From Bacillales bacterium (GTDB lineage: Bacteria; Bacillota_I; Bacilli_A; RFN20; CAG-826), in contig JAQYER010000036.1 in the NCBI GenBank assembly GCA_028723545.1, positions 1 to 62,020 of the forward strand: a stretch of DNA of 62,020 nt, given 5' to 3'. Shown here one piece after another: positions 7,933 through 34,682 of the stretch. Positions within the stretch are counted from its first letter, which is position 1, and every line of letters begins with the position of its first letter. The notes below the pieces were generated by a model. That model was not told where the DNA came from. It was given only the letters and a program-made list of their open reading frames with translations, and made no database searches. The translations under genes and the position numbers were made by a program.

Positions 7933-7946
7933 AAACTTATTTCTCC

Positions 7947-10493: not shown

Positions 10494-10511
10494 AATTTGT
10501 TGCCTCCTTTT

Positions 10512-11429: not shown

Positions 11430-13194
11430 GAACAGCTCCTCTCCAATAAGAAAAGTCTCCATTAGGTCCTTTATATTCTGGTTCAACATAATCAGGTCTA
11501 TTTTGAGGATAACCATATTCAACATTTAACAATTGTTTGGTAGTTACATATGATTCTGAATAGAAAGTAATTACTTTGTCTAAACCTAATTTTTTAGCAT
11601 AAGTAATCGCGTTATTGTAGTCGGTTTTCCAATCATTTGAACGAATAATATCCACTAAAGCCTCAGCCCATTTTGTTTTAATCTTATTAAAGCTAGTTGT
11701 TATTGAGAAATAATCTTCTCTAGAAGTATCATGTTTTAAGAATGTTGGTTTGAAATTATATGAATATGGAGTAAGTGGTCTTTTCATATTATCAATATAA
11801 ATATCGGTCGCTTTTCTTCCGTTTAATGGTTTGTATTTATTGATATACGCTAAATTCATTAATAAAGTCATATTATATAAGCCAAGAGTGTTAATCCATG
11901 CTTGGTCTTCAGCATTTCCATTTACACCTGAAACATATCTATCTGACCATAATATTTGTGTGTGGTCTTCATTCCAGTAATAAGATTCGCCTTCAACACC
12001 AAAAGCCACTAATCTTTGTCCTTCTTCTGAATATAGATATTCAAGCAATTTAATTGCCTTATCAGGATTCTTACAATTTCTAGTAATCATAGTTAATAAA
12101 TAACCGTTTCCAGAAATATCTTGTAATATTGGTGCTTGATTATCTTTGTTTTTTAAAATTAATGGAACGTAATTTACTCCAGATGCATATGCATTGAGGA
12201 ACGCCATTTGATAATCTTGAGGAGTAACAGCTGTAACAAAACAATTTCCACGAGAAATATTTGTTCTAATTGCAGCTGATTTAGCTGAATAGTTTTCTGA
12301 TTTAATAATTCCTTCTTTATGACATTTATTTAAAAATTCAAGCATTTCTTGATAACGTTCAGTTGTGCGAATATCTAAATAATTGCCTTCTTTGTCTTCA
12401 TATGGAGCACAGAAATATTGAGCTAACCAATCAACCGAATCATTTCCTTCAGTTGTAAAAGCATCTAATTGGAAAGGAATTGCGTCATTATGTTTAGTCG
12501 CAATATATTTACATCCTTCAATAAATGATGCGGCAGAAGTCATATCATATCCTGCTGATAAAGCTTCTTTATACCAATCTTCGCGAACCATTAAGCATCC
12601 ATTTGGTTCCATTTTATCAGTGTCATTAACATATTTTGTTGAATAAGCAAAATTTGGAACGCCATAACAATACCCATCTCCTTCGGTAAAATAATTCCAA
12701 ATATCTTCTTGTTCTTTTTCTTTAAAAGATGGAGCCCATCGTTCAATTAATCCATCTAATGGATATAAATAACCTTGGTTCGCTAATTGAGAGCATTGTG
12801 TGTACCAACATTGAACAGAAATAATATCAGGCAATTTATTTCCAGAAATAAGTGTAGATAATTTTTGTCCATCATCAGTAACCGGAACAGTAAATTTGAT
12901 TTTTGCACCAGTCTTTTCTTTAATAATTTGGCTAACGCGGTCAGATCCATATGAGTTCCATGCAAAAGTTGAATCATTGACATACCATTCAAGATCCCAT
13001 TCATCAACTGTGCCATCTTCATTTTTTAAATATTCCCAAGAATCTTTATCTCCTGGAGTAAGTGGCAAATCAGGATAAATATCCTCAATATTAGTTGATG
13101 AACTAGTTGAATCAAAATAACTTAAAAGACCACAACTAGATAGCATAGTTGAAGATAAAAAAGCTAATAAAATTCTTTTAAATGTTTTATTCAT
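11422..13194 (-). CDS. ABC transporter extracellular solute-binding lipoprotein (large LplA/YtcQ-like family-1 SBP)
   Basis: 590 aa, lipobox LSSC, directly upstream of two LplB/LplC-type permeases. Confidence 0.8.
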   Translation of the reverse strand: MNKTFKRILLAFLSSTMLSSCGLLSYFDSTSSSTNIEDIYPDLPLTPGDKDSWEYLKNEDGTVDEWDLEWYVNDSTFAWNSYGSDRVSQIIKEKTGAKIKFTVPVTDDGQKLSTLISGNKLPDIISVQCWYTQCSQLANQGYLYPLDGLIERWAPSFKEKEQEDIWNYFTEGDGYCYGVPNFAYSTKYVNDTDKMEPNGCLMVREDWYKEALSAGYDMTSAASFIEGCKYIATKHNDAIPFQLDAFTTEGNDSVDWLAQYFCAPYEDKEGNYLDIRTTERYQEMLEFLNKCHKEGIIKSENYSAKSAAIRTNISRGNCFVTAVTPQDYQMAFLNAYASGVNYVPLILKNKDNQAPILQDISGNGYLLTMITRNCKNPDKAIKLLEYLYSEEGQRLVAFGVEGESYYWNEDHTQILWSDRYVSGVNGNAEDQAWINTLGLYNMTLLMNLAYINKYKPLNGRKATDIYIDNMKRPLTPYSYNFKPTFLKHDTSREDYFSITTSFNKIKTKWAEALVDIIRSNDWKTDYNNAITYAKKLGLDKVITFYSESYVTTKQLLNVEYGYPQNRPDYVEPEYKGPNGDFSYWRGAVHE

Positions 13195-13206
13195 AAAAAC
13201 TCCTCT

Positions 13207-14130
13207 CTAACCCTTCAAGCTTCCAATTACAACTCCTTTTGTAAGGGTTTTTAAAATTAATGGATATATAATAAAAATTGGAATAACTGAAATAATAATT
13301 GCCGCTAAAGAGACAGTTTCTGGTGCGACTTTATTTAATAATTCAACTGGTAATGACACTCCAGGAGCAGGCATTGAAGATTCATTAATAACTTTCATTA
13401 AATAATATTGGAGAGTCCATAAATTTTCATTTGAAGTGTAAATCATAGTTTCAAAAAATGAATTCCAATGGCCTACTGCAATCCATAACGCAACCGTTGA
13501 TACGACTGGTCCACTTAGTGGAAGAAGAATGCTAAAGAAAATTCTAAATTCACTCGCTCCATCCATGACAGCGGATTCATGAATTTCTTCAGGAATTGTT
13601 TTAAAGAAATTAACAAATACGAGCATGTTGTAAACAGAAAATAAGGCCGGAATAATGTAAACCCAAAATGAATCAAATAAACCTAATACATTAATTACTA
13701 AGAAATAAGGAATAAGACCTCCACCAAAGAACATCGTAAAAATAAAGAATCGATAAATAACTGGTTTACCTATGAGATTTGGTCTTGACATCGCATAGGC
13801 AACAATCGCAGTAAAAATAACTCCAGTTATAGTTCCTAATATCGTTCTAGCGATGGTTATACCATATGCTTTCCATAAACGAATATCATTTAATACTACA
13901 TTGTAATTTTCTAATGAGAACACTCTTGGAAATAACCAAATACCTCCATTAATATAATCAGCGCCTTCAGAGAATGAACCCGCTAAAACATAGATAAGAG
14001 GATATACACTCATTAAAGAGAAAACTAAAAGTAAAGAAACATTTATCCAATCAAAAAGATGTTTCTTTTGTTTTCGACCAGTTGAACCAATCATCAGTTG
14101 GTTTTTCTTATATACTTTTTTTGTTACCAT
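13207..14130 (-). CDS. carbohydrate ABC permease (LplC/YtcP-like)
   Basis: Six-TM MalG-class permease with an EAA-loop region (ESAVMDGASEFRIFF.ILLP). ATG at 14128-14130 is preferred; an alternative GTG lies at 14145. Confidence 0.8.
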   Translation of the reverse strand: MVTKKVYKKNQLMIGSTGRKQKKHLFDWINVSLLLVFSLMSVYPLIYVLAGSFSEGADYINGGIWLFPRVFSLENYNVVLNDIRLWKAYGITIARTILGTITGVIFTAIVAYAMSRPNLIGKPVIYRFFIFTMFFGGGLIPYFLVINVLGLFDSFWVYIIPALFSVYNMLVFVNFFKTIPEEIHESAVMDGASEFRIFFSILLPLSGPVVSTVALWIAVGHWNSFFETMIYTSNENLWTLQYYLMKVINESSMPAPGVSLPVELLNKVAPETVSLAAIIISVIPIFIIYPLILKTLTKGVVIGSLKG

Positions 14131-14131
14131 A

Positions 14132-15115
14132 TTAGAAAATCCCACTTCCTGTTGTCTTTTTAGCTACCCAGTTACCAACACCTAGTAACACAATAGCGAC
14201 AACTGATTTAAAGAAACCAACTGCGGTGGTATATGAATATTGAAGATTAACAGCGCCATATTTATAAATAAAAGTATCAAGAACTTCACTTCTAGCTAAA
14301 TTAATCTGGTTTTGGAATGTCCAAATATGATCAAAACCATTATTTAATATTCCACTTACAGATAAAATGAAAAACAAGACAATTGTTGGTGCGATTGAAG
14401 GGATTGTAATATGAATAATGCGGTGCAATCTAGTTGCCCCATCCATATCAGCAGCTTCAAATAATTGAGGGTCAATTCCAGCAATCGCGGCAACATAAAT
14501 AATTGATCCCCATCCCATTCCTTTTAATAAAGAAGTAATAATAATAGTTGGCCAGAAATATTGAGATTCACCAAAATTAATTGGATCAGAAACAATATTT
14601 AGTTTTAATAAAACCGTATTAATAATTCCATCCGAATTTATTAAAGCTAAAATAATTCCTCCATAAACAATCCAAGAAAGGAAATATGGGAAATAAGTAA
14701 TAACTTGCACTGTTTTGCGGATTTTTTTCCATGGTAATTCACTTAATAAAATCGCGAACAAAATTGGAGCTGGGAAATTAATGCATAATTGAAGAATGTT
14801 TAATCCTAAAGTGTTTAGCATGACATCTTTAAAATCAGGGTCATTAAAAAATGCTTTGAAATTATCAAATCCAACCCATTCACTTTTAAAAATTGCATCA
14901 AGAATATTTAAATAACCATCTCCGCTTTTAAAAGCTAAAATTAATCCAAACATTGGAAGATAGGCAAAAATGGCAATGAAAATAACTCCAAAAGACACCA
15001 TTATTCCTAATTCAAAAGCGCTTCTAGTAAATTTTTTCTTTTCGTGTCTTCTTGCTAATGGAGAAATTTCTTCAAGAGCAGCTTCATATGGTTTTTTCTT
15101 TTTAATTGTTAACAT
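14132..15115 (-). CDS. carbohydrate ABC permease (LplB/YteP-like)
   Basis: EAA loop EAADMDGATRLHR. The AAGGAG SD sits 8 nt before ATG 15113-15115; the ORF-track start at 15124 is a GTG directly abutting the SD. Confidence 0.8.
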   Translation of the reverse strand: MLTIKKKKPYEAALEEISPLARRHEKKKFTRSAFELGIMVSFGVIFIAIFAYLPMFGLILAFKSGDGYLNILDAIFKSEWVGFDNFKAFFNDPDFKDVMLNTLGLNILQLCINFPAPILFAILLSELPWKKIRKTVQVITYFPYFLSWIVYGGIILALINSDGIINTVLLKLNIVSDPINFGESQYFWPTIIITSLLKGMGWGSIIYVAAIAGIDPQLFEAADMDGATRLHRIIHITIPSIAPTIVLFFILSVSGILNNGFDHIWTFQNQINLARSEVLDTFIYKYGAVNLQYSYTTAVGFFKSVVAIVLLGVGNWVAKKTTGSGIF

Positions 15116-16115
15116 CTGAAACACTCCTTCTTTCTACCAAAGTAGGTTCAATCAATATCGTTTTTTTAATTTTTTGATTATTGAATAATTCATTGATTAC
15201 CGAACTACATAACGAATCAATATTTTGTTTTATTGTTGTTAATCCTGGAGTAATTAGTGAAGAAAATTGATTATCATCAAATCCAACAACTGAAATGTCT
15301 TTTCCAACTACCTTGTTCATTTCAGAAGCTGATTTATATATTGAATACGCCATCAAATCATTAAAAGCAAAAATGGCAGTAATTGAATTGTCTTTCAATA
15401 TTTCTTTTGCAAGAGGGAACGCTCCATCGAAATGATAATCGCCTTCATAAACGATTGAGTCATCGAATTCGACCCCCCATTCAGATAAAGCTTTTTTATA
15501 ACCGAGTAAACGATCTTGTGAAGAAGAAATTTCTTTTGGTCCAGTAATACAAGCAATCTTTTTATGCCCTTTTTCTAACAAATATTTGGTAGCCAAATAT
15601 CCACCTTTTATATCGTCATTAACTACTATTGGAGCGTTCTCGATATCAATTTTTCTATCTAAAATAACAACAGGAACATCAATATCTTTTTCTAAAGATT
15701 TAATATCTAATAATTGATTATTTGAAAAACTAGAAGGTGGAACAACTATTAAGAAATCAATATTTTTAATAATCATGTCAGCAATGGTTTTCTTAAATAA
15801 TTCAATGTCATATCCTGAATTAGCAATAAATAATGAATAACCATTTTTAACAAATGATGATTCTAAAGATTTAATTAATCTTGCATAATAACCGTTTTCA
15901 ATATCTGGCACTAATACAGCGGCGGTATGGGTTAATTTGCTTTTTAACGCACTGGCAATATAATTTGGATGATAATGATATTTATTGCACACATCTAAAA
16001 CTCGTTGACGAGTTTCTTTTGAAACGGAGTCAGTTTTTCCATTTAAAACAAAACTAACTGCGGTAATTGATACACCACATTCTTTTGCTATATCTTTTAT
16101 CGTAATCCTTGCCAT
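15102..16115 (-). CDS. LacI-family transcriptional regulator
   Basis: N-terminal HTH MARITIKDIAKECGVSITAVSFVLNGK followed by a periplasmic-binding-fold sugar sensor domain. Confidence 0.9.
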   Translation of the reverse strand: MARITIKDIAKECGVSITAVSFVLNGKTDSVSKETRQRVLDVCNKYHYHPNYIASALKSKLTHTAAVLVPDIENGYYARLIKSLESSFVKNGYSLFIANSGYDIELFKKTIADMIIKNIDFLIVVPPSSFSNNQLLDIKSLEKDIDVPVVILDRKIDIENAPIVVNDDIKGGYLATKYLLEKGHKKIACITGPKEISSSQDRLLGYKKALSEWGVEFDDSIVYEGDYHFDGAFPLAKEILKDNSITAIFAFNDLMAYSIYKSASEMNKVVGKDISVVGFDDNQFSSLITPGLTTIKQNIDSLCSSVINELFNNQKIKKTILIEPTLVERRSVSDVNN

Positions 16116-16116
16116 A

Positions 16117-18069
16117 TTAAATTAATCTCACCTTAAAATTAATATCGGTAACTCCGATAACATTATTATCAATATTAAAATGAATTTGATCGCCAACATT
16201 CCTTTTTTCATTAGGCTCAAATATCAAAATATCTTCATTATTAACATTAACGATATAATATGTTTCATTTCCATAATCGATTATATTTTTAATTTCACCG
16301 GCAAATAATCCATCTTCGCTAATTTTTATATCGTGTGAATTAATTGAAAATTTGATTTGATGTAATTCAAATTTCTTTCCTAACAAATTATATATTTTCA
16401 CTATTGAAGAATTGTTTGGAGTAATTTCTTTACCTAATAATAAATAATTGAATACTTTAATATTTGAATTTTTAATTTTAATTTTCTTTCCACTAGAGTC
16501 TTTAAAATTATTTGACGATAATCTTTCATACATTTCTGGTTCAACTAAATTTTTATCAAGTACTGGAAGAACCATTTTATGAGGAACTAATTTTCCATCA
16601 ATTTCATTGTATTTATTCAAACAATCAATAACTAATTGTCCATTTTCATCAAATATTTTTAAAGAAGGAATTGATAATGAAAATTCAAAATAATCCCCAT
16701 CAATATATTGTTCTTGAGAATAGAATAAATATTCATCTTTGTGTTTTAATTTAAAAACCCATCTATTATTGATTTTTTCTTTATTAACTATTTTAATTTT
16801 AAAATCTGTTCCTTTAATTATTGAATCATTATTAATAGATACATAATAATTAACACCATTTAATTTATCTAATATGAATGAAGGAATACTTAATTTATGT
16901 CCTAAAATGGATAATTTATCTTTATTTAATGTTGCTCTAACAGTCATTGTTTGAGGAATTCGAGGAAGAATCGTATTTGTTGACTCTTTCAAAAATAAAT
17001 GCATTTTTGATAAATCTAGTTTTACATAAATCTTTTGTCCTAATGTAAAATTATCGTTACGTAAAGTGCGGATTGTAATTCTTGTTTTATCCACTACTGA
17101 TTCAACAATTAAGTTACATTCATTTCCTAAAGCTTCAATAACACTAATCTCGCATTCAAAAGCATTTTTATCATTTGGCTTACATAAAACAACGTGCTCT
17201 GGTCTAATTCCAACAACAACTGGTTTTTTATTGATTATATTAATAATATCGATGCGAGAAATATCATCAACTGAACACACTATTTTATTAAATGAAGAAG
17301 TAATTGAAACATCTTTTCCTTCATAATCCATCTTAGCGTCAAAAAAGTTCATTTGAGGAGTTCCAATAAATCCTGCAACAAATTCATTAACAGGATAATC
17401 ATATAAATTCATTGGTGAATCAACTTGTTGAATAACCCCAAGTTTCATAACAACAATTTTTGTTCCCATGGTCATCGCTTCAATTTGGTCATGAGTAACG
17501 TAAATAAATGTAGTGCCTAAAACATGATGTAAACGAGTGATTTCACTTCTCATTGAGCTTCGCAATTTAGCGTCCAAATTTGATAATGGCTCATCAAGTA
17601 AAAATACTTTTGGCTTTCGAACAATCGCTCTACCTAACGCCACACGTTGACGTTGGCCACCAGACATGGCTTTTGGTTTTTTATTCAATTGGTTTTCAAT
17701 ATCTAAAATACGTGACGCTTCATGGACTCTTCGATCAATTTCGTCTTTAGGAACATGTCGAATCTTTAATCCAAAGGCCATATTGTCATAAACAGTCATA
17801 TGAGGATATAAAGCATAGTTTTGGAACACCATCGCCATATCGCGGTCTTTTGGTTCTAAACTATTTGATAAAATTCCATCAATATAGAAATCACCAGCGG
17901 TAATATCTTCAAGCCCTGCAATCATTCGTAGTGTTGTCGATTTACCACATCCAGAAGGACCAACAAAAACAATGAATTCATTATCACCAATTTCTAAATT
18001 AAAATCATCGACAGCCTTTGTGCCGTTGTCATAAATCTTATAAATGTGTTTTAGTGATAAATTCGCCAT
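16117..18069 (-). CDS. MsmK/MalK-type sugar ABC ATPase with ~280-aa C-terminal extension
   Basis: Walker [10 protein letters not shown], signature LSGGQRQR, Walker B FLLDEPLS and H-loop. The regulatory TOBE region ends near aa 370, but the ORF continues to 650 aa. Confidence 0.9.
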   Translation of the reverse strand: MANLSLKHIYKIYDNGTKAVDDFNLEIGDNEFIVFVGPSGCGKSTTLRMIAGLEDITAGDFYIDGILSNSLEPKDRDMAMVFQNYALYPHMTVYDNMAFGLKIRHVPKDEIDRRVHEASRILDIENQLNKKPKAMSGGQRQRVALGRAIVRKPKVFLLDEPLSNLDAKLRSSMRSEITRLHHVLGTTFIYVTHDQIEAMTMGTKIVVMKLGVIQQVDSPMNLYDYPVNEFVAGFIGTPQMNFFDAKMDYEGKDVSITSSFNKIVCSVDDISRIDIINIINKKPVVVGIRPEHVVLCKPNDKNAFECEISVIEALGNECNLIVESVVDKTRITIRTLRNDNFTLGQKIYVKLDLSKMHLFLKESTNTILPRIPQTMTVRATLNKDKLSILGHKLSIPSFILDKLNGVNYYVSINNDSIIKGTDFKIKIVNKEKINNRWVFKLKHKDEYLFYSQEQYIDGDYFEFSLSIPSLKIFDENGQLVIDCLNKYNEIDGKLVPHKMVLPVLDKNLVEPEMYERLSSNNFKDSSGKKIKIKNSNIKVFNYLLLGKEITPNNSSIVKIYNLLGKKFELHQIKFSINSHDIKISEDGLFAGEIKNIIDYGNETYYIVNVNNEDILIFEPNEKRNVGDQIHFNIDNNVIGVTDINFKVRLI

Positions 18070-18298: not shown

Positions 18299-19915
18299 TT
18301 ATTTTTCTTTTTTTGTTTTAATAACAAGTGAAGTAACAAGTAATGATGAAATAGTTAATATACAAATAATTGTAATTAATGAATTAGAAGATTCTGCTAC
18401 ATTGACAATTTGGCGAAGATTCAATTGAGCAGAAATTCCTTTTGTCATAAAGTCTTCATATCCATATTTCATAACAAGGTATTCATATCTTGCAATTGCT
18501 TGTTCGATTGCGTCACCTTCAACATTAGATTTTGCACTTCTAAGATAATCTTTTTCGGTATCAGATAATGCATTGAATGCTTCTTTAAATGAAGACCATG
18601 ATTTTCCTTCTGCAAATGTTGGAGCGTTAACTCCACTTGCATCACATGTCATAGACGCTAAGAAATCATCTGCAAATAAGAATGATGCTTCATGATAATA
18701 TCCAGGTTCAATACTAGCAGTACATCCTCCAGATGTCCATGGCACTACAAACTTTTCAGTCATTGTTCTTGTCCACCATTGACCAGCAAATTGTGGATTA
18801 TCTGTTCCGAAATCACCGATAACTAAATTACCATTGGCAGCAAATTGAATATCGATTTGGTTAACATTAGTAATATGGAATGATTCACTTTCAGGCGCAA
18901 ATGATGAGCTTGGGAAATAAATAAATCCATCGTAGCCGGCAGGAAGTTCAAAATAACCAACATCATTGATTGAATAATCGGAAATATCTAATCCATTTGA
19001 ACTAATACGATAATAAGTAGAGTTTGCTTTTAAAGGGGCACTGCCTTGCCACCAGTCAGATGCTAATACGAATTTTGGCCAGCAACTTGCAGTTCCATCA
19101 TTTCTAATTCTCATCCATAAACCTGATGTGGCATTAATAAAGTATCCAAATTGGAAATCTGCTCCAGCATAATCAGTTGTTTGTAAACGAACACCACCGA
19201 GAAGATTTCCACTTGGTGAACAAACACGAGTTGCACTTAATTGTTCAACGCTTTGATATGCAGTAGATCCGCCTTGATTGATAAATATTGAACTAAAATC
19301 ACTAGCAGCGATTTCTGATGTATCAACAACTGTTTTTTGATCAGTGAAGATATCACCAATAGCAAAATTAGCGTATGCATCATGTTTGCCGCTATATTCA
19401 ACATAAATTCTCCATATTGAACTAGGATTAAATTCATTATCTCCGCCTTCAATTTTGGTCATTTGTGAAGTGTAGTTCATATAAACATAACCATCAAACC
19501 AAGCAGGTAACATTAAATAGTTTCCAAAATCTCTTGGGGCGCATCCATATACTTCAACACCATTAACATCATAATATGTTTGCTTTACATCTTTAGTTGG
19601 AGCAATAATTGCGGTATTTGTTGAATTAATTTTAAATGTAATAGGCGTATTAGTGCCGGTATAGTTACGCATTCTAACATAAATTCCGGTACCAGAATAA
19701 TCACCATTATTGTTATTGGCATTAATTTCAGTAATATTACCAACATCTGAATCGCGGGCAGATGTAGCGTAAATATGAGCGCCACCTAAATAATCGTGAT
19801 TAAATGCTGCTTCAGCTTTGGTTTCTATAGCGACATCATTTCCTAATGATAAAGCAAGACCACCACACGCTAAAGCGCAAATAGCTGTAAATAAAAGACG
19901 ATTTAATTTTTTCAT
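18299..19915 (-). CDS. 538-aa surface protein, paralog of the 848-aa repeat protein, with C-terminal TM anchor
   Basis: Signal peptide. The block TEINAN..(D/Y)SGTGIY(L/V)RM(K/R)NYTGT.TP.TFKINSTN...FNPSSIWRIY(I/V)E(F/Y)SG is shared with the 7947-10493 product. It ends LITIICILTISSLLVTSLVIKTKKEK. Confidence 0.7.
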   Translation of the reverse strand: MKKLNRLLFTAICALACGGLALSLGNDVAIETKAEAAFNHDYLGGAHIYATSARDSDVGNITEINANNNNGDYSGTGIYVRMRNYTGTNTPITFKINSTNTAIIAPTKDVKQTYYDVNGVEVYGCAPRDFGNYLMLPAWFDGYVYMNYTSQMTKIEGGDNEFNPSSIWRIYVEYSGKHDAYANFAIGDIFTDQKTVVDTSEIAASDFSSIFINQGGSTAYQSVEQLSATRVCSPSGNLLGGVRLQTTDYAGADFQFGYFINATSGLWMRIRNDGTASCWPKFVLASDWWQGSAPLKANSTYYRISSNGLDISDYSINDVGYFELPAGYDGFIYFPSSSFAPESESFHITNVNQIDIQFAANGNLVIGDFGTDNPQFAGQWWTRTMTEKFVVPWTSGGCTASIEPGYYHEASFLFADDFLASMTCDASGVNAPTFAEGKSWSSFKEAFNALSDTEKDYLRSAKSNVEGDAIEQAIARYEYLVMKYGYEDFMTKGISAQLNLRQIVNVAESSNSLITIICILTISSLLVTSLVIKTKKEK

Positions 19916-20083: not shown

Positions 20084-21025
20084 TTACAATTTTATTGTTT
20101 CTAAAGGTTTGTTTTCTTTAATAAATTGTTCAACTTCTTCTTTGTGATGAAGAGATGGTATTGCCCCTTTAACTTGGACAGTTAATGCCCCCATTGCATT
20201 TCCATATTTAACAGCATCTTCAATTGAACATCCTTCGCTTAATGAATACGCAAAAGCGCCAATAAAGCTATCTCCTGCCGCAACAGTGTCAATCGCATCT
20301 ACATGATATGAAGATACAATTCTTGCTCCATTTTCATCAAAAATAAACGCTCCTTTTGAGCCTAGTGTTGTGACAACATGTTTAACACCTTTATCAAATA
20401 ACGCTTTTGCGGCGATTTTTATTTGATTGATATCAGATGTATCTAAATTAGAAATAAGCGCTAATTCGGTTTCATTTGGCATTAAATAATCTAAATTTTT
20501 CAATATATAATCAGGTAATTTAATAGCAGGGGCTGGATTTAAAATAACTTTGACATTATTTTGTTTACAATATTCAATGACTTTAAATGTTGTTTCGATA
20601 TCCATTTCTAATTGACAAATCACATAATCACTATCTTTTAAAACTGGTTTAACTTTTTCAAATTGTTCATCTAAAAATTCATGATTCGCGCATGGAATAA
20701 CACAGATTCTATTTTGACCATTTTTATTGATTTGGATTTGAGCTGTTCCAGTGCAATTTTTATCAGTTACAAAAACATTTGATACATCAATATTTTCTTT
20801 TTTAAATAAATCGATAAATTTTTGACCATTCGCATCATTTCCAACCATTCCAATCATTCTAACATCGGCGTTTTGTCTTGCTAAAGCAATGCATTGATTT
20901 GCGCCTTTACCGCCTAAAAAGATTTGTAATGATTTACCCACTACTGTTTCACCTGCTTCAGGATAACGATCCATTGAAGCAACATTATCGACCATAAATG
21001 ATCCAAATACTGTTATTTTCTTCAT
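20084..21025 (-). CDS. ribokinase-family (PfkB) sugar kinase; specificity not determinable (ribose or possibly D-arabinose)
   Basis: 313 aa with GGKGANQCIALA and DTVAAGDSFIGAF motifs and clear similarity to RbsK. It is the last gene of locus B. Confidence 0.75.
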   Translation of the reverse strand: MKKITVFGSFMVDNVASMDRYPEAGETVVGKSLQIFLGGKGANQCIALARQNADVRMIGMVGNDANGQKFIDLFKKENIDVSNVFVTDKNCTGTAQIQINKNGQNRICVIPCANHEFLDEQFEKVKPVLKDSDYVICQLEMDIETTFKVIEYCKQNNVKVILNPAPAIKLPDYILKNLDYLMPNETELALISNLDTSDINQIKIAAKALFDKGVKHVVTTLGSKGAFIFDENGARIVSSYHVDAIDTVAAGDSFIGAFAYSLSEGCSIEDAVKYGNAMGALTVQVKGAIPSLHHKEEVEQFIKENKPLETIKL

Positions 21026-21076
21026 AATATAACCCTAAAATTATAATAATATGTTAGTAAATAATTTTTGTTTCAA

Positions 21077-21679
21077 TTATTTATTGTTTTGTTGTTTTCT
21101 TAATGATTCACCTAACGCTCCATTAGGATGGAAATTATAAAAATCATCTTTGGTGAAATTGTTTGATTTAGATATTGCACACGCGATTGCGTCACCTAAC
21201 ACTAAACACATTGTCGAAGAATTAGTTGGAGCTAAATTTAAATGATCAGCTTCTTTTAATTTAGGATAAATAATTTTGTAGTCACATTCTAAAGCTAATT
21301 TTGAATTAGGATTTGATGTAAAAGCGATTGTGGCTGCTCCAATTTTTTTAATTGGTTCGAGGTTTTGTGTAACTTCTTTAGTTGTTCCACTATTAGACAT
21401 TAAAATGACAATATCTTTCTTTTCAATCATTCCTAAATCACCATGACAAGCTTCAGTTCCGTGAACAAAAAATGATGGCGTGCCAGTCGATGAAAATGTC
21501 GCAGCGAGTTTTTTACATACATGTCCTGATTTGCCAACTCCTAAAAAGATTATTTTTCCTTGGCAATTATTAATTAATTGACAAATATTCTCTAAATTAT
21601 CGTAATCGAGACTTCTTTCCATTTCCTCGATTGCGTTTCTTTCACTAATAATTGCTTCTTTAATTCCATCTTTAAACAT
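21077..21679 (-). CDS. single-domain (SIS only, no CBS pair) D-arabinose-5-phosphate isomerase, KdsD/GutQ/KpsF-like
   Basis: GVGKSGHVCKKLAATFSSTGTPSFFVHGTEACHGDLGMI..D.VILMSNSGTTKE follows the KdsD/GutQ SIS core almost residue for residue. About 200 aa. Start at ATG 21677-21679, preceded by a GAGGTGG SD. Confidence 0.75.
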   Translation of the reverse strand: MFKDGIKEAIISERNAIEEMERSLDYDNLENICQLINNCQGKIIFLGVGKSGHVCKKLAATFSSTGTPSFFVHGTEACHGDLGMIEKKDIVILMSNSGTTKEVTQNLEPIKKIGAATIAFTSNPNSKLALECDYKIIYPKLKEADHLNLAPTNSSTMCLVLGDAIACAISKSNNFTKDDFYNFHPNGALGESLRKQQNNK

Positions 21680-21692
21680 AAGACCACCTCTT

Positions 21693-22913
21693 TTATTTAA
21701 ATTCAATTTCGATTAATGAAGTGTTATATATTGGAGACCATTGAGATACTTGCATAAAGATCTTTTTTCCATCATATAACGACATCTTTGGATGAATAAA
21801 CCCGCCATAATGAGATACAACTTCATTATGGGTTAATACTTTAATTTTCTCATCAAAGGACGAAGTTAATTCATCACATAAATGAATATTTAATTGGTTT
21901 CCATCAATATTAGTAAGCATCCATTTATGCAAATATTTATTATACATTATTGATGGCTCTGATACATTTCCAATTAATAAATAATATGGTTTTAATTTAA
22001 TTCCTTCATTAAATTTAGCCCATTTATTTTTACCTACGCATAATTCATATTCATTTTTATTTTCAAATTGTTCTTTTTTAACGCGTAATAAAGATAAATT
22101 CCCAACTCTTCCACCAGGGATAGAAACAAAATAAATATGTTTATCATCAAATGGGTTTTCGAATGGAAATATTTGTCCAAAACGATTATCCTCTATTTCT
22201 TCAAAGTTCAATGAATCCACTTTGACAAAGTGCTCTAAATCATCTTTTTTGGCTTTATAGCATTGATTATTTGTTACATGCCATTTGCCAGCTTCACCCC
22301 AATATCGAACAGACATGATAAATATATATACATACCCATTTAAATATATTCCACCAGTTGGAATACAAGATACTTCTTTATTAAGAGATATATCTAAATT
22401 CTTTTCGTCATTTCGGTGATGTTTTCCTTGTCTTATTGGTTTAATGATTCCGTTTTCGTCAGTAATGATTTCATTGAATTTAAGACCATTAAGATATGAT
22501 TTTGTGTTACTTCTAGCAATAAAATTTGAATTCCATAACCCATCATTACAATCTATTCCAGAAAATGTATCTCCATATAAATAAATCATTGAATCGTTTA
22601 AATCAACTGGGATGCCAAGATCAGTCGCTCCCGCTTTCGCGTTCACTAGCAAATTACAATTAATAGAATCTCTTCCAGTAACAAAACCAATATTGTGTAC
22701 ATATTCAATTTTATCATCTAAAGAAAAACTTCCTTCAGGAGGTAAAGCAACATATAACACAACAACATTTGGTTCTTTTGTTTCGTATGAAAAAACGTGA
22801 TTTACTAAAGCTTTATTCGTTTTGACATATTTAATTTCGATTTCATATTCGTATAAACGTTTTTTTGCTTCTTCAAGCGAATTATATAAAACATTTGGAA
22901 CAGGTGTAATCAT
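21693..22913 (-). CDS. DUF4185 (GH183-like) protein, cytoplasmic, with PASTA-like N-terminal module
   Basis: No signal peptide. Motifs GATDLGIP..L.D..IYLYGDTFSG......LWNSNF.A, KIPTGGI..NG.VYIF.MS.RYWG..G.W.V and SIPGGR are shared with the 22979-24322 product. Confidence 0.6.
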   Translation of the reverse strand: MITPVPNVLYNSLEEAKKRLYEYEIEIKYVKTNKALVNHVFSYETKEPNVVVLYVALPPEGSFSLDDKIEYVHNIGFVTGRDSINCNLLVNAKAGATDLGIPVDLNDSMIYLYGDTFSGIDCNDGLWNSNFIARSNTKSYLNGLKFNEIITDENGIIKPIRQGKHHRNDEKNLDISLNKEVSCIPTGGIYLNGYVYIFIMSVRYWGEAGKWHVTNNQCYKAKKDDLEHFVKVDSLNFEEIEDNRFGQIFPFENPFDDKHIYFVSIPGGRVGNLSLLRVKKEQFENKNEYELCVGKNKWAKFNEGIKLKPYYLLIGNVSEPSIMYNKYLHKWMLTNIDGNQLNIHLCDELTSSFDEKIKVLTHNEVVSHYGGFIHPKMSLYDGKKIFMQVSQWSPIYNTSLIEIEFK

Positions 22914-22944
22914 ATTTACTCCTCTACAATTTGAAAATATAAAT

Positions 22945-22968
22945 TAGAGAGTGTGTCGCCACACCCTC
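22945..22968 (-). terminator. GC-containing hairpin between the two DUF4185 genes (partial terminator or attenuator)
   Basis: agag(a)gtgtg-tcgc-cacac(c)ctct, a 10-bp stem with one mismatch, followed by only a modest T-rich tail on the minus strand. Confidence 0.35.
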
Positions 22969-22978
22969 TAATATCATG

Positions 22979-24322
22979 TTATTTAAGTACAACTTCAACT
23001 AAATAAGTGTTATAAATCGGAGTCCATCTAGATAATTGAATATACATTCTTTGTCCATCACTATCCATGAACTTAGAGTGAACAAATCCCCCATATAATC
23101 CAGGGAAATCACTTGAACTAACGACTGGATAAGTTTCATTATATGGACCACAAACATTATCAGCTACTCCAAAGACAATATTTGATCCTTTTAATGTCGC
23201 GAATACATATTTATCTAAATATTCACTGTACACAATTGATGGTTCAGATACTCCAGGAGACATAATAAAATATGGATTATCATTTAATTTTTTCATTCCA
23301 TCATCACCTTTAGTCCAGGTGTTCTTGCTTGTTAAATATTCATATTCATCGCGATTTTCAAATTTGTCTTTATCGACTCTAAACATAACCGCTCCATTAT
23401 TTCTTCCACCAGGAATTGATGTGAAGTAGATATGTTCATTATCTTTTGGATCATTAAATGGATAAATTTGACCAGCATAATATAACTCATCTTCATTCCA
23501 TCTTAACGATTCGACATTTGACCATGATTTATAGGTTGAATCATCAGCTTTTAAACATTGGTTATAAGTGACTCTCCAGTCACCTCCAACTCCCCAATAA
23601 CGGATTGACATATAGAAAATATAAACATCATTTCCAATGCTAATTCCACCAGTAGGGATTTTTGTTACTTCGACTGATTTATCAGTTTCATTTCCGCCTT
23701 GATGCGCTCCTTGAGCAAATGGAAGAATCATTCCATTTGCATCGTTAGTTACTAATTCATCAAATTGTAATCCATCTGTTAAATCTTCATCACTAGTAAT
23801 TGCCATAAAGTTTGAATTCCAAAATCCAGACATCGGTGCACTTGAAAAAGTGTCACCATATAAAAGCATTGTTCTTCCATCTGGAAGTTCAAATGGAATT
23901 CCTAAATCAGTACCGCCTTGTCCAGCATTGGTACACAATTCCTCGTTAGTCGAATCTCGACCGGTAATTCTGTCTAATTCAGTAATGTAATTAACAATAT
24001 TACTATCGGATAACGCTATTGATTTATCTAAACGCGCTGCAACATTAACAGCGATTCTAGATCCTTTTTCAACAACATCCCCAACATTATTATTACGATA
24101 TCCTAAAATTCTTCCTTCAATTAACTCTGAAGTTTGAACTTCGATTGGGTCAATATAAATATTTGCACCAAGTAATAATTTTGCTTCACTAGTCGTTAAA
24201 TTGTGAATTTCAGGGAGTGTATATCCGTTTACAATAGTGACGGAGCTGGATTGGTTACATCCAGCTACGCCAAAACAAACTGAAGTCAATAACGCGCCGA
24301 TTAAATATAATTTATTTTTCAT
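22979..24322 (-). CDS. DUF4185 (GH183-like) lipoprotein with PASTA-like N-terminal module
   Basis: Lipobox VAGC. PASTA-like segment YTLPEIHNLTTSEAKLLLG...GRILGY....VGDVVEKGSRIAVNV, followed by GGTDLGIPFELPDGRTMLLYGDTFS...FWNSNFMA. Confidence 0.6.
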   Translation of the reverse strand: MKNKLYLIGALLTSVCFGVAGCNQSSSVTIVNGYTLPEIHNLTTSEAKLLLGANIYIDPIEVQTSELIEGRILGYRNNNVGDVVEKGSRIAVNVAARLDKSIALSDSNIVNYITELDRITGRDSTNEELCTNAGQGGTDLGIPFELPDGRTMLLYGDTFSSAPMSGFWNSNFMAITSDEDLTDGLQFDELVTNDANGMILPFAQGAHQGGNETDKSVEVTKIPTGGISIGNDVYIFYMSIRYWGVGGDWRVTYNQCLKADDSTYKSWSNVESLRWNEDELYYAGQIYPFNDPKDNEHIYFTSIPGGRNNGAVMFRVDKDKFENRDEYEYLTSKNTWTKGDDGMKKLNDNPYFIMSPGVSEPSIVYSEYLDKYVFATLKGSNIVFGVADNVCGPYNETYPVVSSSDFPGLYGGFVHSKFMDSDGQRMYIQLSRWTPIYNTYLVEVVLK

Positions 24323-24346: not shown

Positions 24347-26833
24347 TTATTTTTCTTTTTTCTTAAATGCAACTAATGCAACACCTGCTAATGCAAGTCC
24401 AGAAATAATTGCACTTGTTGCGATAATTGAACCTTTGCAACCTTTTTTGGCAGGTTCATCAGCTTCTTTTTTAGCAACTGTAACAACGATTGATGCTTTA
24501 ACACCATTTTCAGCTGTAACAAAAATTTGAGCAGAACCTTCACCAACAGCAATAACTAAACCAGTAGATGATACAGTTGCAATATTTTCATTTGATGAAG
24601 ACCAAGTAAATGTTGTTTCATCATGGTCTTCTGGGTTAGCAACAAATGATAATTGTAATTCATCACCAATAAATAATTCTTGGTCACCTTGTTCAATTGA
24701 TAAACGTGTTACTGGATTAGCAATTGGAGTTTCACTTAATAAATGAATTTCAACATTATCAATATACACAATGTCTCCAATTGCGACTGGTGTTAATAAC
24801 CAACGTAATGAGTTCCATTGAATCTTATCTGAAGTAATTTCAAATGAGAATTCAACTCTAGTAAATCCATTTTCTAATGCTTGTGTTTTAACTCCATAAT
24901 GAAGTTTTTCAGCACCAGAAGTCATTGATGGAATTCCAGCGCGGAAATCAAGGAGATAATATTCAACGTTTGCACCACCAACAAGTGATGAGTCAGCAAC
25001 AGTGTAGCTTTCTGCTGCAGCAGATAATGTAGTCTTAACATCGTATCTAAATCTAACTAAATCACCAATTGTTAAATCATCTGGTGTCATTAAGAACATT
25101 GATGAATATGCTTTTGTATCAGTTTCATCAAATTTTCCGATAGCGGCAACTTTGTTACCATCTTCAAGTTGAATGATTCTTCCTGGGTTATCAAAATTAT
25201 CAACTGATCCCCATGCACCTTCTAATTGAGTATTTGATAATTTTGTTCCAGCTTCGAAAGCTTCAAAATCACCATTTACAACAAGGTTTTTATCTTCATA
25301 ATAATCGAATTCTGGATCATAGGCTGATTCAGCGATTGTTTTTAAACATAATTCAGTAATTTTTAATGAAGATGTTCCTGCGTTATGGAATTCAACTGCA
25401 GTAGCTCCTAAAACAGAAGAAATTCTTTGAACATCGACTTTAGTTACATCAATTGTAACATCTTTAATTGATGCGCCATCTTTAATGAATTTTGCTACTA
25501 ATGAAGCGCCTTCATTAACATCAGAAGTTTTAACAGTTAATTCATAATCAGAATTAGATAAATCTTCAATTAAAACACCATAATAACCATTTGATTCAAT
25601 AGTAACTGAACCTAAAGCTAATTTAGCGTTATTACCATATAAACCAGTTGAATCTGGTTCTTCAGTTAAAGATCCGCCAGGTAATCTATCAGCAATTGAA
25701 GTAAAGTCTCCGCATGTAAATAAATTATTTCCGCCTTCTTCTTTAATACTGAAGTTATCAAAATAAATATCTCCAGCATCAGTATTAGCCCATAATCCGA
25801 CAGAATCGAATGCAGCAACAGAAGTATATGTTGCTGTGACATGTTTCCATCCTCTTAAGCCATCAGTAATTGTGGTGTTATAATATGCGACATCGGCTTC
25901 ATTGAAGATATTTCCATCATGTGACCATTTGCCATTATCATAGAAGTGGAAGCCAATGTTATTTGTGCCATTTGGAGCGAAATAATCAAATTCAAATGTA
26001 TATGTTTTTCCACCTTCAATTCCACTAAGTAAATTAAAGCAATCTGGGAATCCACCTTTGCCTTTGTTGAATCTTAGAGCAACATTTGTTGAATCAGTTG
26101 GATCAAGAGTAAAGGCTTGATTATATCCTCCCCAGTCTCCCCATCCTTCAACTACGTCAGCGCTGAAAGCTAATTCTGGAACATAAATATCTTCCATGTA
26201 ATTTGAGAAATCACCGTTGACAAAATGGTTAACACCATCGCCAGAATCGCAAGTGAAATTATCAAAATAAATTGCTCCTGAAGCAGTATTAGCCCATAAG
26301 CCAATTGAATCAAATACACCAACAGAAGTGTATTTAAAATCAACATGTTTCCATCCGCTTGATTTATCACTAATAGTTGTTTGATAATATGCGACATCAC
26401 TTTCTTTGAAAATGTTTCCTTCATGTGACCAAGCACCATTATCATATAAGTGGAAGCCAATGTTATCAGTTTTAGATGTTAAATAATAATCAAATCCTAA
26501 TGTGTATTCTGTTCCAGCAGTAATGTCTGAAATAAGACCAAAACAGTCAGGGAATCCACCTGCTTGATATTTTAATACGACGTTAGTTGAATTGGTTGGA
26601 TCTTTGACGAAATATTCATCAAAATCACTCCAGTCTCCCCAGCCACGTGGAGCTTCACCAGTGATTTTAACTTCGCTTACTCCTCCACCACCTAAAGAGA
26701 ATGTTGCGTTTGGAATAACATTATCACCATAAAGAATATTGCCTGCAGCGTTAACACCAATAGGTGAACGACCAAATGAGGCAATAGATATGAATGCAAA
26801 AGTTCCAATCGCTAATGGTAATACTTTTTTCAT
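24347..26833 (-). CDS. 828-aa surface protein: signal peptide, tandem CBM4/9/22-like modules, Big_2 domain, C-terminal TM anchor
   Basis: Two clearly duplicated ~150-aa modules (GWGDW..(F/Y)...F..DPT.STNV.L...GGFPDCF.L.S.I..G..YT..FDY......NIGFH.YDNG.WSH.GNIF.E.DVAYY.TTI.D...GWKHV). Further NGDFE-type modules follow. Big_2-like FTWSSSNENIATVSSTGLVIAVGEGSAQIFV, and the protein ends ..IISGLALAGVALVAFKKKEK. Confidence 0.7.
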   Translation of the reverse strand: MKKVLPLAIGTFAFISIASFGRSPIGVNAAGNILYGDNVIPNATFSLGGGGVSEVKITGEAPRGWGDWSDFDEYFVKDPTNSTNVVLKYQAGGFPDCFGLISDITAGTEYTLGFDYYLTSKTDNIGFHLYDNGAWSHEGNIFKESDVAYYQTTISDKSSGWKHVDFKYTSVGVFDSIGLWANTASGAIYFDNFTCDSGDGVNHFVNGDFSNYMEDIYVPELAFSADVVEGWGDWGGYNQAFTLDPTDSTNVALRFNKGKGGFPDCFNLLSGIEGGKTYTFEFDYFAPNGTNNIGFHFYDNGKWSHDGNIFNEADVAYYNTTITDGLRGWKHVTATYTSVAAFDSVGLWANTDAGDIYFDNFSIKEEGGNNLFTCGDFTSIADRLPGGSLTEEPDSTGLYGNNAKLALGSVTIESNGYYGVLIEDLSNSDYELTVKTSDVNEGASLVAKFIKDGASIKDVTIDVTKVDVQRISSVLGATAVEFHNAGTSSLKITELCLKTIAESAYDPEFDYYEDKNLVVNGDFEAFEAGTKLSNTQLEGAWGSVDNFDNPGRIIQLEDGNKVAAIGKFDETDTKAYSSMFLMTPDDLTIGDLVRFRYDVKTTLSAAAESYTVADSSLVGGANVEYYLLDFRAGIPSMTSGAEKLHYGVKTQALENGFTRVEFSFEITSDKIQWNSLRWLLTPVAIGDIVYIDNVEIHLLSETPIANPVTRLSIEQGDQELFIGDELQLSFVANPEDHDETTFTWSSSNENIATVSSTGLVIAVGEGSAQIFVTAENGVKASIVVTVAKKEADEPAKKGCKGSIIATSAIISGLALAGVALVAFKKKEK

Positions 26834-26853: not shown

Positions 26854-27906
26854 TTATTTATTTTTAAGAGGCAATCTTTCTTTGACAGATAAGATATTCT
26901 CTTTAATACCAAATGGTTGTTTCATATACCAATACGCTGTTGAAGAATAATCATCAGTGCGATGATTATTATGTCCATGTTCAATCGTTACTTTAATGGA
27001 TTTTTTAAAAGTAATTGGATCTAATATGTGATATCGGTAATATGTAATTTTTCCTTTCCAGTTATCTTTTCCTGGAATAATTATTCCGTGATATGGAGCG
27101 TTATATTCTTGGTTAGGACACCATGCGCAATTAATATAATCTTCAGTGCCAGTACCATTAATTGTTGGTAATTTATCACCATCAATAAAAATCATATCGT
27201 CGCCTTCTCCAGGCCAATCCCAATCAGAAGTATCTAATTGGTTATCGATATTTAAATTGCATCCGCAATAATGGCCTTCGCCTTCAATATCTAAGATGAC
27301 ATAATTGTCTTTTCCATCGAGATTCTGGCCTGAAAATTCATAGTCGCGGAAATTATCAAATTCGCTTCTATCTTTTCCTTTAGGTGGATTTTCTCGATGC
27401 CATAAAGCATGGAAATAAGTAATATCTTCATCGAATGTTTTTAATTCATAATCGATGTAATAATAAAGCATTAATGTCGTATCGCATTCATTGATGATTT
27501 CAATTTTGGCGTGCTCTTTAAAAGGCATTGGCCACCAACAATTTAGTCCTCTTCCATCTTGTGGAGACATTTGTAATGGAGCGGAAACAAAATTGTGTGA
27601 TATTCCATGTCCCATTCCAAAGAAATCCCCTAATGGAGCGATTACACTTGGATAAGAATTGTTTTCCCAATACATTTTAATGACAATTTTACGGAAAGCA
27701 TTTTCTTCAATAATGTCTCCAAAATTCATTTGAGTCATCCAAATGTGTTCAATTAATCCTGAACCTTGGATATCAAAAATAACACGTGATTCACCTGGTT
27801 TAATATAAATGCGGTCATCATTTCCACCGCTTCTATCCCATGATGATTCTCTTCTTCTAATGCCTTTTTTTGGTAAATAAATTGTTGATAAGTCGTGTCC
27901 AATCAT
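26854..27906 (-). CDS. DUF2961 / GH172 family glycoside hydrolase, cytoplasmic
   Basis: RRESSWDRSGGNDDRIYIKPGESRVIFDIQGSGLIEHIWMT near the N-terminus and DDYSSTAYWY near the C-terminus are hallmark DUF2961 segments. No signal peptide. Confidence 0.75.
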   Translation of the reverse strand: MIGHDLSTIYLPKKGIRRRESSWDRSGGNDDRIYIKPGESRVIFDIQGSGLIEHIWMTQMNFGDIIEENAFRKIVIKMYWENNSYPSVIAPLGDFFGMGHGISHNFVSAPLQMSPQDGRGLNCWWPMPFKEHAKIEIINECDTTLMLYYYIDYELKTFDEDITYFHALWHRENPPKGKDRSEFDNFRDYEFSGQNLDGKDNYVILDIEGEGHYCGCNLNIDNQLDTSDWDWPGEGDDMIFIDGDKLPTINGTGTEDYINCAWCPNQEYNAPYHGIIIPGKDNWKGKITYYRYHILDPITFKKSIKVTIEHGHNNHRTDDYSSTAYWYMKQPFGIKENILSVKERLPLKNK

Positions 27907-27907: not shown

Positions 27908-28795
27908 TTATTTTACTCCTGTTAACGCGATACCATCTTTTATATATCTTTGAACGATGCAGAAAATAATAACAGCAGGAATTAAAGCGATGAAAGACGC
28001 CGCTAAAACTGAGCCATATCCTTGTGTTGATGCATCGTTAAATAATTTATTAATTGTTGTCATTATTTGTGCTAAATATGCATGATCACTATCAATTGTT
28101 AATGTTGGCCATAAATATGAATTGAAATAGCCAATAAATGTTCCCGCTCCCATAATTACCATCGGAGTCGCACTACTAGGAAGATAAATACGGAAGAAAA
28201 TTGAAAACGAATTACATCCATCAACTCTTGCTGATTCATCATAATCTTTTGGGAATCCTAAATAAAATTGTCTAAAGAAGAAAATATTATATGCACTTGC
28301 GACACCTGGAATAATTAATACCCAAATTGTATTCATCATTCCTAAAGCAGAAACAACTGAAATCGATGTTAATAAAATCGTAATTCCTGGAATAAACATC
28401 GTCATTAATGTAATAATCCAAAATAGTTTTTTAGCTGGGAAATTTAATCTTGCAAAAGCATATCCTGCTAAAGAATTAACAAATAACGACATAATCGTTG
28501 AAATTGACGCGACAAGAAGAGTCATAAACAATGATTGGAAGAAATTAATTCCAATTGATGTATATTGTAAATAAGCAATTCTTGTAAAGTTATCTATAGT
28601 AGGATTTATTGGGAAAAGATGAAATTCAGTTGGGAATATTTCTTGTTTATTTTTAAACATACAGATAATTGTTAAAAACAAAGGAAGGAATAAACAAAAT
28701 AACACGACTGCAATAACGATATAACACATCACTAAAACAATTTTATTAGTGATTTCGCTTTTTCTAGATAATTTAGTTAAATCTTTTTTATCCAT
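27908..28795 (-). CDS. carbohydrate ABC permease (MalG-class)
   Basis: Six TM helices and EAA loop ESARVDGCNSFSIFFRIYLP. Confidence 0.85.
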   Translation of the reverse strand: MDKKDLTKLSRKSEITNKIVLVMCYIVIAVVLFCLFLPLFLTIICMFKNKQEIFPTEFHLFPINPTIDNFTRIAYLQYTSIGINFFQSLFMTLLVASISTIMSLFVNSLAGYAFARLNFPAKKLFWIITLMTMFIPGITILLTSISVVSALGMMNTIWVLIIPGVASAYNIFFFRQFYLGFPKDYDESARVDGCNSFSIFFRIYLPSSATPMVIMGAGTFIGYFNSYLWPTLTIDSDHAYLAQIMTTINKLFNDASTQGYGSVLAASFIALIPAVIIFCIVQRYIKDGIALTGVK

Positions 28796-34617: not shown

Positions 34618-34631
34618 AATTTCTCTTTTCT

Positions 34632-34664: not shown

Positions 34665-34682
34665 GTTCGCTAAATAAGTCTA

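Follow-up and report, generated by a model that had tools for sequence, protein, structure and literature searches.

Gene cluster and candidate single-domain isomerase

The stretch of DNA analyzed here, hereafter the window, comprises 62,020 nucleotides of contig JAQYER010000036.1 (assembly GCA_028723545.1), a metagenome-assembled genome labelled 'Bacillales bacterium' by NCBI. Its G+C content is approximately 30%, and the minus strand carries nearly all genes. According to our analysis, a gene encoding a short protein with a SIS domain and a gene encoding a ribokinase-like PfkB kinase are the final two of a tightly spaced minus-strand cluster, which is transcribed in the order AraC regulator, solute-binding lipoprotein, two ABC permeases, cytoplasmic GH172, Big_2 surface protein, GH183 lipoprotein, cytoplasmic GH183, SIS protein, and kinase. 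The intergenic gaps range from 1 to 65 bp, and there is one overlap, between the two permease genes. The features are given below, where labels of the form L001 denote comparison loci introduced in the next section.

20084 to 21025, minus strand: PfkB kinase of the ribokinase subfamily, 313 amino acids (aa), proposed D-arabinose 5-kinase (PF00294, TIGR02152)
21077 to 21679, minus strand: candidate arabinose-5-phosphate isomerase with a single SIS domain, 200 aa (PF01380 only)
21693 to 22913, minus strand: cytoplasmic GH183/DUF4185 protein of 406 aa lacking a signal peptide (PF13810, 164.5 bits)
22943 to 22972, minus strand: terminator-like hairpin with a 13-bp stem and a T-run, separating the GH183 genes (pattern scan only)
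22979 to 24322, minus strand: GH183/DUF4185 lipoprotein of 447 aa, candidate for an extracellular endo-alpha-D-arabinanase (PF13810, 190.9 bits; lipobox ...GVAGC)
24347 to 26833, minus strand: surface protein, 828 aa, with internal repeats, Big_2, and a C-terminal membrane anchor (PF02368; signal peptide and hydrophobic anchor in the sequence)
26854 to 27906, minus strand: cytoplasmic GH172/DUF2961 protein, 350 aa, candidate exo-alpha-D-arabinofuranosidase (PF11175, 284.5 bits)
27908 to 29735, minus strand: two ABC sugar permease genes, 27908 to 28795 and 28788 to 29735 (homologous to the BPD_transp_1 genes in the same position in L001 to L003)
29738 to 31096, minus strand: lipoprotein serving as the solute-binding component of the ABC importer (homolog of SBP_bac_1 in L001, 665 bits; lipobox in the sequence)
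31278 to 32126, minus strand: AraC-family regulator heading the cluster (homologous to the AraC_binding/HTH_18 gene of L001, 386 bits)

An initial annotation of this DNA had placed the kinase gene 51 bp downstream of the isomerase gene, and the latter next to D-arabinan-type hydrolase genes. Both statements agree with the layout found here, where the kinase starts at 21025 and the SIS stop codon occupies 21077 to 21079, and where the two GH183 genes lie directly upstream, in addition to the GH172 gene. The kinase had also been called a second RbsK paralog, and further PfkB kinases are indeed encoded at 3881 to 4762 and 33700 to 34617. As the same annotation had stated, genes for 3-deoxy-D-manno-octulosonic acid (Kdo) or lipopolysaccharide (LPS) were absent among the window open reading frames (ORFs) scanned, which likewise included no D-arabinose isomerase of the fucose-isomerase type. 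Homologs of GH116 (ExoMA2 type), FucU, FucP, and dihydrodipicolinate synthase (DHDPS) were sought in the window, and none was present.

The ORF list opens the SIS gene at a TTG codon at 21706. We prefer the ATG at 21679, which is almost certainly the true start because it is preceded by a AAGAGGTGG ribosome-binding site and because the N termini of homologs match it. The product, named 'SIS domain-containing protein' by NCBI, contains the motifs GVGKSGH, STGTPSFFVH, and HGDLGM, and its Pfam matches consist of a single SIS domain (PF01380, 96.8 bits) with zero CBS matches, so that the earlier description of a KdsD/GutQ core without the CBS pair holds. The KdsD model NF008141 is matched with 192.8 bits over model positions 6 to 202 of 328 only, corresponding to the SIS half, and the score against TIGR00393 (188.2 bits) stays below the cutoff of 203.7 for a full-length KdsD-family match. 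Among solved structures, 5UQI/5VHU is the nearest (E = 1.6e-58), and the 5UQI-type E. coli island protein is 52% identical to the SIS protein over 185 aa. This structure is followed by the SIS domain of E. coli KdsD (2XHZ, 2.8e-41), by the single-domain Bacteroides protein 3ETN, and, at a greater distance, by Listeria 3FXA (4.4e-29). The catalytic residues K59, H88, E111, E152, and H193 of KdsD all have counterparts in the SIS protein according to the 2XHZ alignment, and these positions are invariant in an alignment of 21 diverse homologs. Fold, motifs, and nearest characterized relative point to isomerase chemistry between D-arabinose-5-phosphate (A5P) and D-ribulose-5-phosphate (Ru5P). The absence of the CBS pair noted in the initial annotation stands; the single-domain type is already known from PDB 5UQI.

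Kinase subclade, gene pairing, and upstream modules

The kinase scores 222 bits on PfkB (PF00294) and 343.5 bits on the ribokinase equivalog TIGR02152, and it is 33 to 38% identical to solved ribokinases. When its sugar pocket was compared with the list of ribose-binding residues in PMC9604405 (in E. coli numbering N14, D16, G42, K43, N46, E143, and D255), six of the seven were found to be kept, among them the catalytic D255, while Asn14 is replaced by Met; residue 13 is Phe. The kinases linked to a SIS gene combine Phe13 with Val, Met, or Ile at position 14 in 15 of 15 cases, and two-thirds of them (10 of 15) carry Gly or Ser at position 98, the same number as carry Val or Pro at position 100. 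N14, A98, and I100 are the residues of five solved bacterial ribokinases and of the window paralog at 3881 to 4762. Asn14 of E. coli ribokinase is among the residues that form hydrogen bonds with ribose, and Ala98, Ile100, and Ile110 form the lid surface facing C2. D-Arabinose is a very poor substrate of the wild-type enzyme (kcat of 1.9 per s, KM of 470 mM), and the A98G exchange raises the kcat for D-arabinose 15-fold and lowers ribose activity (PMC9604405).

The best 150 matches to the window kinase, obtained from a search of 1.8 billion representatives, have Asn at position 14 in 113 cases and Met, Val, or Ile in 28, the hydrophobic residues being concentrated among the top-ranked matches. 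Within this set, Gly or Ser at position 98 covaries with a hydrophobic residue 14 (16 of 28 versus 2 of 113; Fisher p = 8e-12). In a neighbor-joining (NJ) tree of 170 leaves, all 15 SIS-linked kinases fall into a single clade of 33 members, 30 of which have a hydrophobic residue 14. Neither the solved ribokinases nor the window paralog belong to this clade, outside of which Asn14 is present in 117 of 137 leaves. Our pocket argument uses only the signature as a whole, the way it covaries with residue 98, and clade membership; on these grounds, the SIS-paired kinases are assigned to a separate ribokinase subclade with a predicted altered sugar pocket.

The genomic context of the SIS gene was compared by using the SIS protein as anchor, in 80 loci from one-genome-per-species reference genomes and in the contexts of eight metagenome or genome-assembly proteins. 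Among the 15 evaluable Bacillota reference loci with a short SIS gene, 11 have as the next gene a close homolog of the window kinase, or have the two fused, and the same SIS-then-kinase order was met in seven of the eight metagenomic look-ups. The SIS gene is immediately followed by the kinase gene in the window and in L001 to L009, L011, L012, L015, L017, L018, L023, L089, L090, L091, L092, and L095. Distinct pair-bearing Bacillota loci number 16 and are distributed across many lineages. In L010, positions 10001 to 11542 encode a SIS-PfkB fusion in one 513-aa ORF, and P0179, a 50%-identity cluster representative, is the reverse PfkB-SIS fusion of 532 aa. Fusion in both orders is classical evidence for two enzymes acting in one pathway. 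The SIS half of P0179 is divergent, with GKPSH and HGSSGQL motifs. The Gram-negative loci mostly contain full-length SIS-plus-CBS genes of KdsD size, without an adjacent kinase.

The short SIS family serves more than one pathway, because the E. coli 5UQI-type gene, like those of L013 and L014, is found in a context of a PRD antiterminator, a phosphotransferase system (PTS), and MalY. In L016 (Lactobacillus laiwuensis, 7322 to 11516), a short SIS gene accompanies IIA, IIB, and IIC genes of an ascorbate-type PTS, a gene of the KDPG-aldolase family, and a DHDPS-family gene; no kinase is encoded there, and phosphorylation presumably occurs via the PTS.

All 16 distinct pair-bearing loci fall into one of three upstream context types. 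The first consists of D-arabinan-type hydrolase genes, namely, a pair of GH183 genes, accompanied or not by GH172 (the window, L001 to L009, L011, and L018), GH172 alone (L090), or, in L015, an ABC importer together with a GH116 protein whose match to the exo-beta-D-arabinofuranosidase ExoMA2 has E = 2e-215. For the high-GC locus L015, greedy ORF calling was inadequate, and the ExoMA2 ortholog was found by reading the plus strand by hand.

In the second type, a conserved DHDPS-family lyase stands beside the pair in five loci (L010, L012, L089, L091, and L095). It is joined by a TRAP transporter in L012 (4682 to 11532), L089 (2837 to 9523), and L091 (222 to 8237) and by a FucU mutarotase in L010, L089, and L091, the last of which also contains DUF386 and transketolase genes. 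L010 (8576 to 13769) combines the lyase and FucU with a BNR_2 sialidase-like protein and a major facilitator superfamily transporter, and in L095 (4871 to 10528), genes for a BNR_2-like protein and GH20 accompany the lyase. The products of Kdo aldolase are pyruvate and D-arabinose. Judging from these gene contents, the module is probably dedicated to the uptake and aldol cleavage of Kdo or of a similar 2-keto-3-deoxy acid sugar, and the orphan Kdo aldolase, EC 4.1.2.23 (cited in PMC12199768), has a candidate in this lyase. Our literature search turned up no description of Kdo catabolic genes.

The third type is the operon FucU-(LacI)-SIS-kinase-FucP of Virgibacillus ndiopensis (L017, 8398 to 12976) and Tetragenococcus muriaticus (L023, 551 to 3929), both of which are culturable Bacilli. 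Its transporter scores 339 bits on the FucP equivalog TIGR00885 (cutoff, 280.4), and no fucI, fucK, or fucA gene was detected near the operons of L017 and L023. E. coli FucP also transports D-arabinose, which is stereochemically alike to L-fucose. Three unrelated upstream modules would thus be expected to converge on D-arabinose as the kinase substrate. An A5P isomerase would be needed only if the kinase product is A5P.

Proposed pathway and alternative explanations

D-Arabinan is a sugar polymer of bacterial cell walls. The two GH183 proteins of the window match the endo-alpha-D-arabinanase EndoMA1 (8HHV) at E = 2.9e-32 for the lipoprotein and 1.8e-13 for the cytoplasmic protein, and in both proteins the catalytic residues of EndoMA1 (D33, D51, and E243) are preserved. 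Mutation of any of these residues abolishes EndoMA1 activity (PMC10509167). The cytoplasmic GH183 protein probably acts on imported D-arabino-oligosaccharides. The GH172 protein has no signal peptide, and its matches in the PDB are alphaFFase1 (7V1V, 2.9e-78), the Dysgonomonas gadei GH172 enzyme (8AH3, 3.8e-71), and ExoMA1 (8IC8, 2.2e-33). The 828-aa Big_2 surface protein, which occupies the same position in L001, L008, and L009, probably binds glycan. The window thereby contains the combination of endo-GH183, exo-GH172, and sugar importer that is found in published D-arabinan loci.

In the pathway that we propose, the GH183 lipoprotein and the surface binding protein would break down D-arabinan extracellularly, the resulting oligosaccharides would enter through the ABC importer, and the cytoplasmic GH183 and GH172 proteins would liberate D-arabinofuranose. 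The kinase would then phosphorylate D-arabinofuranose at O5 with ATP, yielding A5P (the chemistry of EC 2.7.1.54), and the CBS-less SIS protein would convert A5P to Ru5P (EC 5.3.1.13 in the catabolic direction), which would feed the pentose phosphate pathway. We consider it likely that the kinase and the SIS isomerase form the cytoplasmic end of a D-arabinan utilization locus, with the conversion of D-arabinose to A5P and then to Ru5P. The two-step route from D-arabinose to Ru5P had been suggested in the initial annotation, and it gains support from the gene pairing, the fusions in both orders, the three contexts, and the kinase pocket. On balance, and with more reserve, we also favor the idea that the kinase subclade is the missing gene family of D-arabinose 5-kinase (EC 2.7.1.54) and that, with the CBS-less isomerase, it constitutes a portable Bacillota cassette placed behind at least three sources of D-arabinose. 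In other Bacillota, the cassette appears to be reused behind the probable Kdo-cleaving lyase and behind FucP/FucU modules for the uptake of free D-arabinose.

The terminator-like hairpin at 22943 to 22972 may represent a transcription attenuator or the boundary of a sub-operon, and the last three genes (GH183, SIS, and kinase) may form a separately controlled sub-operon. Promoter-like hexamers lie just downstream of the hairpin; the promoter scan gave 68 matches versus 97 in shuffled sequence, i.e., below background.

Two further sugar loci are present in the window. The first, on the same strand at 2671 to 18069, contains the Asn14-type PfkB kinase (3881 to 4762), a nucleoside-hydrolase-family protein of the inosine-uridine type (10512 to 11525), and several large proteins that lack a match in Pfam, together with an ABC importer and a LacI regulator. 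The locus may be directed at a ribofuranoside, in contrast to the Met14 paralog beside the isomerase. Two surface proteins, of 848 aa (7947 to 10493) and 538 aa (18299 to 19915), have no Pfam match and share homologous N-terminal regions of approximately 200 aa with the pattern ...TEINAN...SGTGIY.RM.NYTG...FKINSTN...; the gene for the 538-aa protein, which has a C-terminal membrane anchor, directly follows the kinase gene of the D-arabinan-type locus. The second locus, a large fructan cluster at 33700 to 50623, lies directly upstream of the D-arabinan-type locus and encodes three GH32 proteins (419, 828, and 1,164 aa), the fructokinase-like PfkB kinase (33700 to 34617), ABC transport proteins, and a LacI regulator.

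Several observations weigh against the proposed pathway and are considered here together with the alternatives to which they lend themselves. The kinase could be an ordinary ribokinase producing ribose-5-phosphate, with the SIS protein being an A5P isomerase in an unrelated role (regulation, or supply of A5P for a glycan) and their adjacency having no pathway meaning. In line with this, the kinase exceeds the TIGR02152 cutoff of 299.65, is named 'ribokinase' by NCBI, and keeps D16, K43, N46, E143, and D255 as well as A98 and I100, the two lid residues said to clash with the 2-OH of arabinose in E. coli ribokinase. The NJ tree carries no bootstrap support values. A hydrophobic residue 14 is also found in P0122, a eukaryote-like tandem ribokinase-family protein with Cys-Met at positions 13 and 14, on account of which the replacement of Asn14 by Met was dropped as a sign of non-ribose specificity when taken alone. 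Human ribokinase also has Met at this position, and a substitution at residue 14 by itself does not exclude ribose as substrate. On the other hand, the pair is conserved in the 16 distinct loci of many Bacillota lineages and fused both ways, the window already possesses an N14-type paralog near the nucleoside-hydrolase-family gene, and the kinases paired with a SIS gene group in a clade of their own, in which the sugar pocket is altered. Furthermore, the pair-bearing loci shown contain D-arabinose-related modules, and in none of them were rbsD or ABC ribose transport genes found. We therefore deem an ordinary ribokinase unlikely.

The GH172 protein is about equally close to alphaFFase1, an alpha-D-fructofuranosidase and difructose anhydride I synthase, and to D-arabinofuranosidases, and by itself does not tell arabinofuranose from fructofuranose. 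The locus could accordingly be directed at alpha-D-fructofuranosides (difructose anhydrides, caramel-type sugars), GH172 freeing fructose for a PfkB fructokinase and for a SIS hexose-phosphate isomerase like 3FXA, and the fructan cluster on its border, with GH32 genes and a fructokinase-like PfkB gene immediately upstream, keeps this possibility alive. Listeria 3FXA, for which glucose-6-phosphate isomerase activity has been reported, is detectably related to the SIS protein. Nevertheless, by the E values given above, the SIS protein resembles 5UQI and KdsD much more than it does 3FXA, and the kinase scores 343 bits as a ribokinase versus 71 bits as a fructokinase. A separate fructokinase-type gene already stands beside the GH32 genes, and elsewhere the pair occurs with the ExoMA2 ortholog, with GH183 proteins of intact catalytic residues, and with FucP/FucU and lyase modules that have no link to fructose, all of which makes the fructofuranoside explanation quite improbable.

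Two observations bear on the D-arabinan reading more generally. As an exception to the pairing, L088 (4645 to 8582) contains two GH183 genes, a LacI regulator gene, and a SIS gene, and the 8 kb downstream contain no kinase gene. The polymer is presumed to be D-arabinan; the carriers are largely gut and rumen bacteria. The order of the two reactions could also be reversed, the SIS protein turning free D-arabinose into D-ribulose and the kinase making Ru5P, with the same net conversion, as the isomerase-then-kinase order of published D-arabinan loci might lead one to expect (PMC10115798, PMC10509167). SIS domains, however, bind phosphosugars, and the phosphate-binding and catalytic motifs of the family are intact in the SIS protein. 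Its closest characterized relative reportedly acts on A5P, and the D-ribulokinases known to us belong to other folds (e.g., FGGY) and not to the PfkB ribokinases. We consider the reversed order very improbable.

If the kinase-first pathway is correct, genes would be assigned to D-arabinokinase, an activity described approximately 60 years ago and listed as gene-less in a 2007 survey (PMC1940265). The A5P isomerases of Gram-positive bacteria, which make no Kdo, would acquire a physiological role, explaining why bacteria without LPS retain such enzymes. D-Arabinan loci would have at least two downstream routes, an isomerase-first route in the published loci of Bacteroidota and Actinobacteria and a kinase-first route in Bacillota. 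The cassette would also point to a probable operon of Kdo catabolism (transporter, DHDPS-type lyase, and usually FucU) with a candidate for the second orphan, EC 4.1.2.23. In addition, a natural D-arabinose 5-kinase would be useful in the enzymatic synthesis of arabinoside drugs, for which E. coli ribokinase is poor (PMC9604405).

Comparison with known systems

The E. coli protein of 5UQI/5VHU resembles the window SIS protein in its length of approximately 200 aa, in consisting of a SIS domain without the CBS pair, and in its catalytic residues. The 5UQI protein corresponds to c3406 of E. coli CFT073, a CBS-less protein for which Mosberg et al. reportedly demonstrated arabinose-5-phosphate isomerase activity in 2011. 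The gene contexts differ, since the E. coli island has the order PRD antiterminator, PTS EIIC, MalY/PatB, SIS, and dehydrogenase, with no kinase and no glycoside hydrolases, whereas the window has GH183-SIS-PfkB instead of a PTS/MalY-type island. A 5UQI-type gene was found in 1,688 of 5,426 complete E. coli genomes. The island gene order of E. coli (L087, 3387 to 8616) recurs in Clostridiaceae and Erysipelotrichaceae (L013, 6301 to 10582; L014, 6302 to 10597), which suggests that this PTS-sugar cassette spread horizontally. KdsD, GutQ, and KpsF share with the window protein the SIS catalytic core and the residues K59, H88, E111, E152, and H193; they differ by their C-terminal CBS pair and by converting Ru5P to A5P for Kdo synthesis, while the window protein is CBS-less and stands in a catabolic context.

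The RbsK proteins of E. coli (1RKD), Vibrio cholerae (4X8F), and Staphylococcus aureus (3RY7) have in common with the window kinase the PfkB fold, Asp255, and most sugar-binding residues. The subclade of the window kinase is set apart by Phe13 with Met, Val, or Ile at position 14, often by Gly or Ser at position 98, and by an isomerase partner in place of rbs transport genes.

The two proposed reactions were reportedly purified as enzyme activities from Propionibacterium pentosaceum by Volk between 1959 and 1962, namely, phosphoarabinoisomerase (EC 5.3.1.13; 1960) and D-arabinokinase (EC 2.7.1.54, with A5P as product; 1962). The reactions, their order, and the Gram-positive nature of the host would be the same as those proposed here, while the P. 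pentosaceum enzymes are known as purified activities only. To our knowledge, they have not been linked to the breakdown of D-arabinan or Kdo. Both EC 2.7.1.54 and EC 4.1.2.23 appear in the table of orphan activities of the 2007 survey (PMC1940265). The claim of a new route in the initial annotation stands insofar as the order differs from the isomerase-first order of published D-arabinan loci; it does not stand for the chemistry, which had reportedly been described in Propionibacterium, with the genes lacking. The novelty thus lies in a D-arabinan locus whose predicted downstream route is kinase-first and draws on a ribokinase subclade, and our literature search retrieved no paper joining arabinose-5-phosphate isomerase with D-arabinan.

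Among the published D-arabinan systems, PUL42 of Dysgonomonas gadei and the Microbacterium arabinogalactanolyticum locus share with the window the GH183 endo-arabinanases and a GH172 exo-enzyme, and the latter locus, from a Gram-positive bacterium, also shares an ABC importer with cytoplasmic exo-enzymes (PMC10115798, PMC10509167). Downstream of these hydrolases, the published loci employ an isomerase of the fucose-isomerase type followed by a kinase, so that D-arabinose is converted to D-ribulose and then to Ru5P (PMC10115798, PMC10509167). In the window, which has no GH116, that place is taken by the SIS isomerase and the PfkB kinase.

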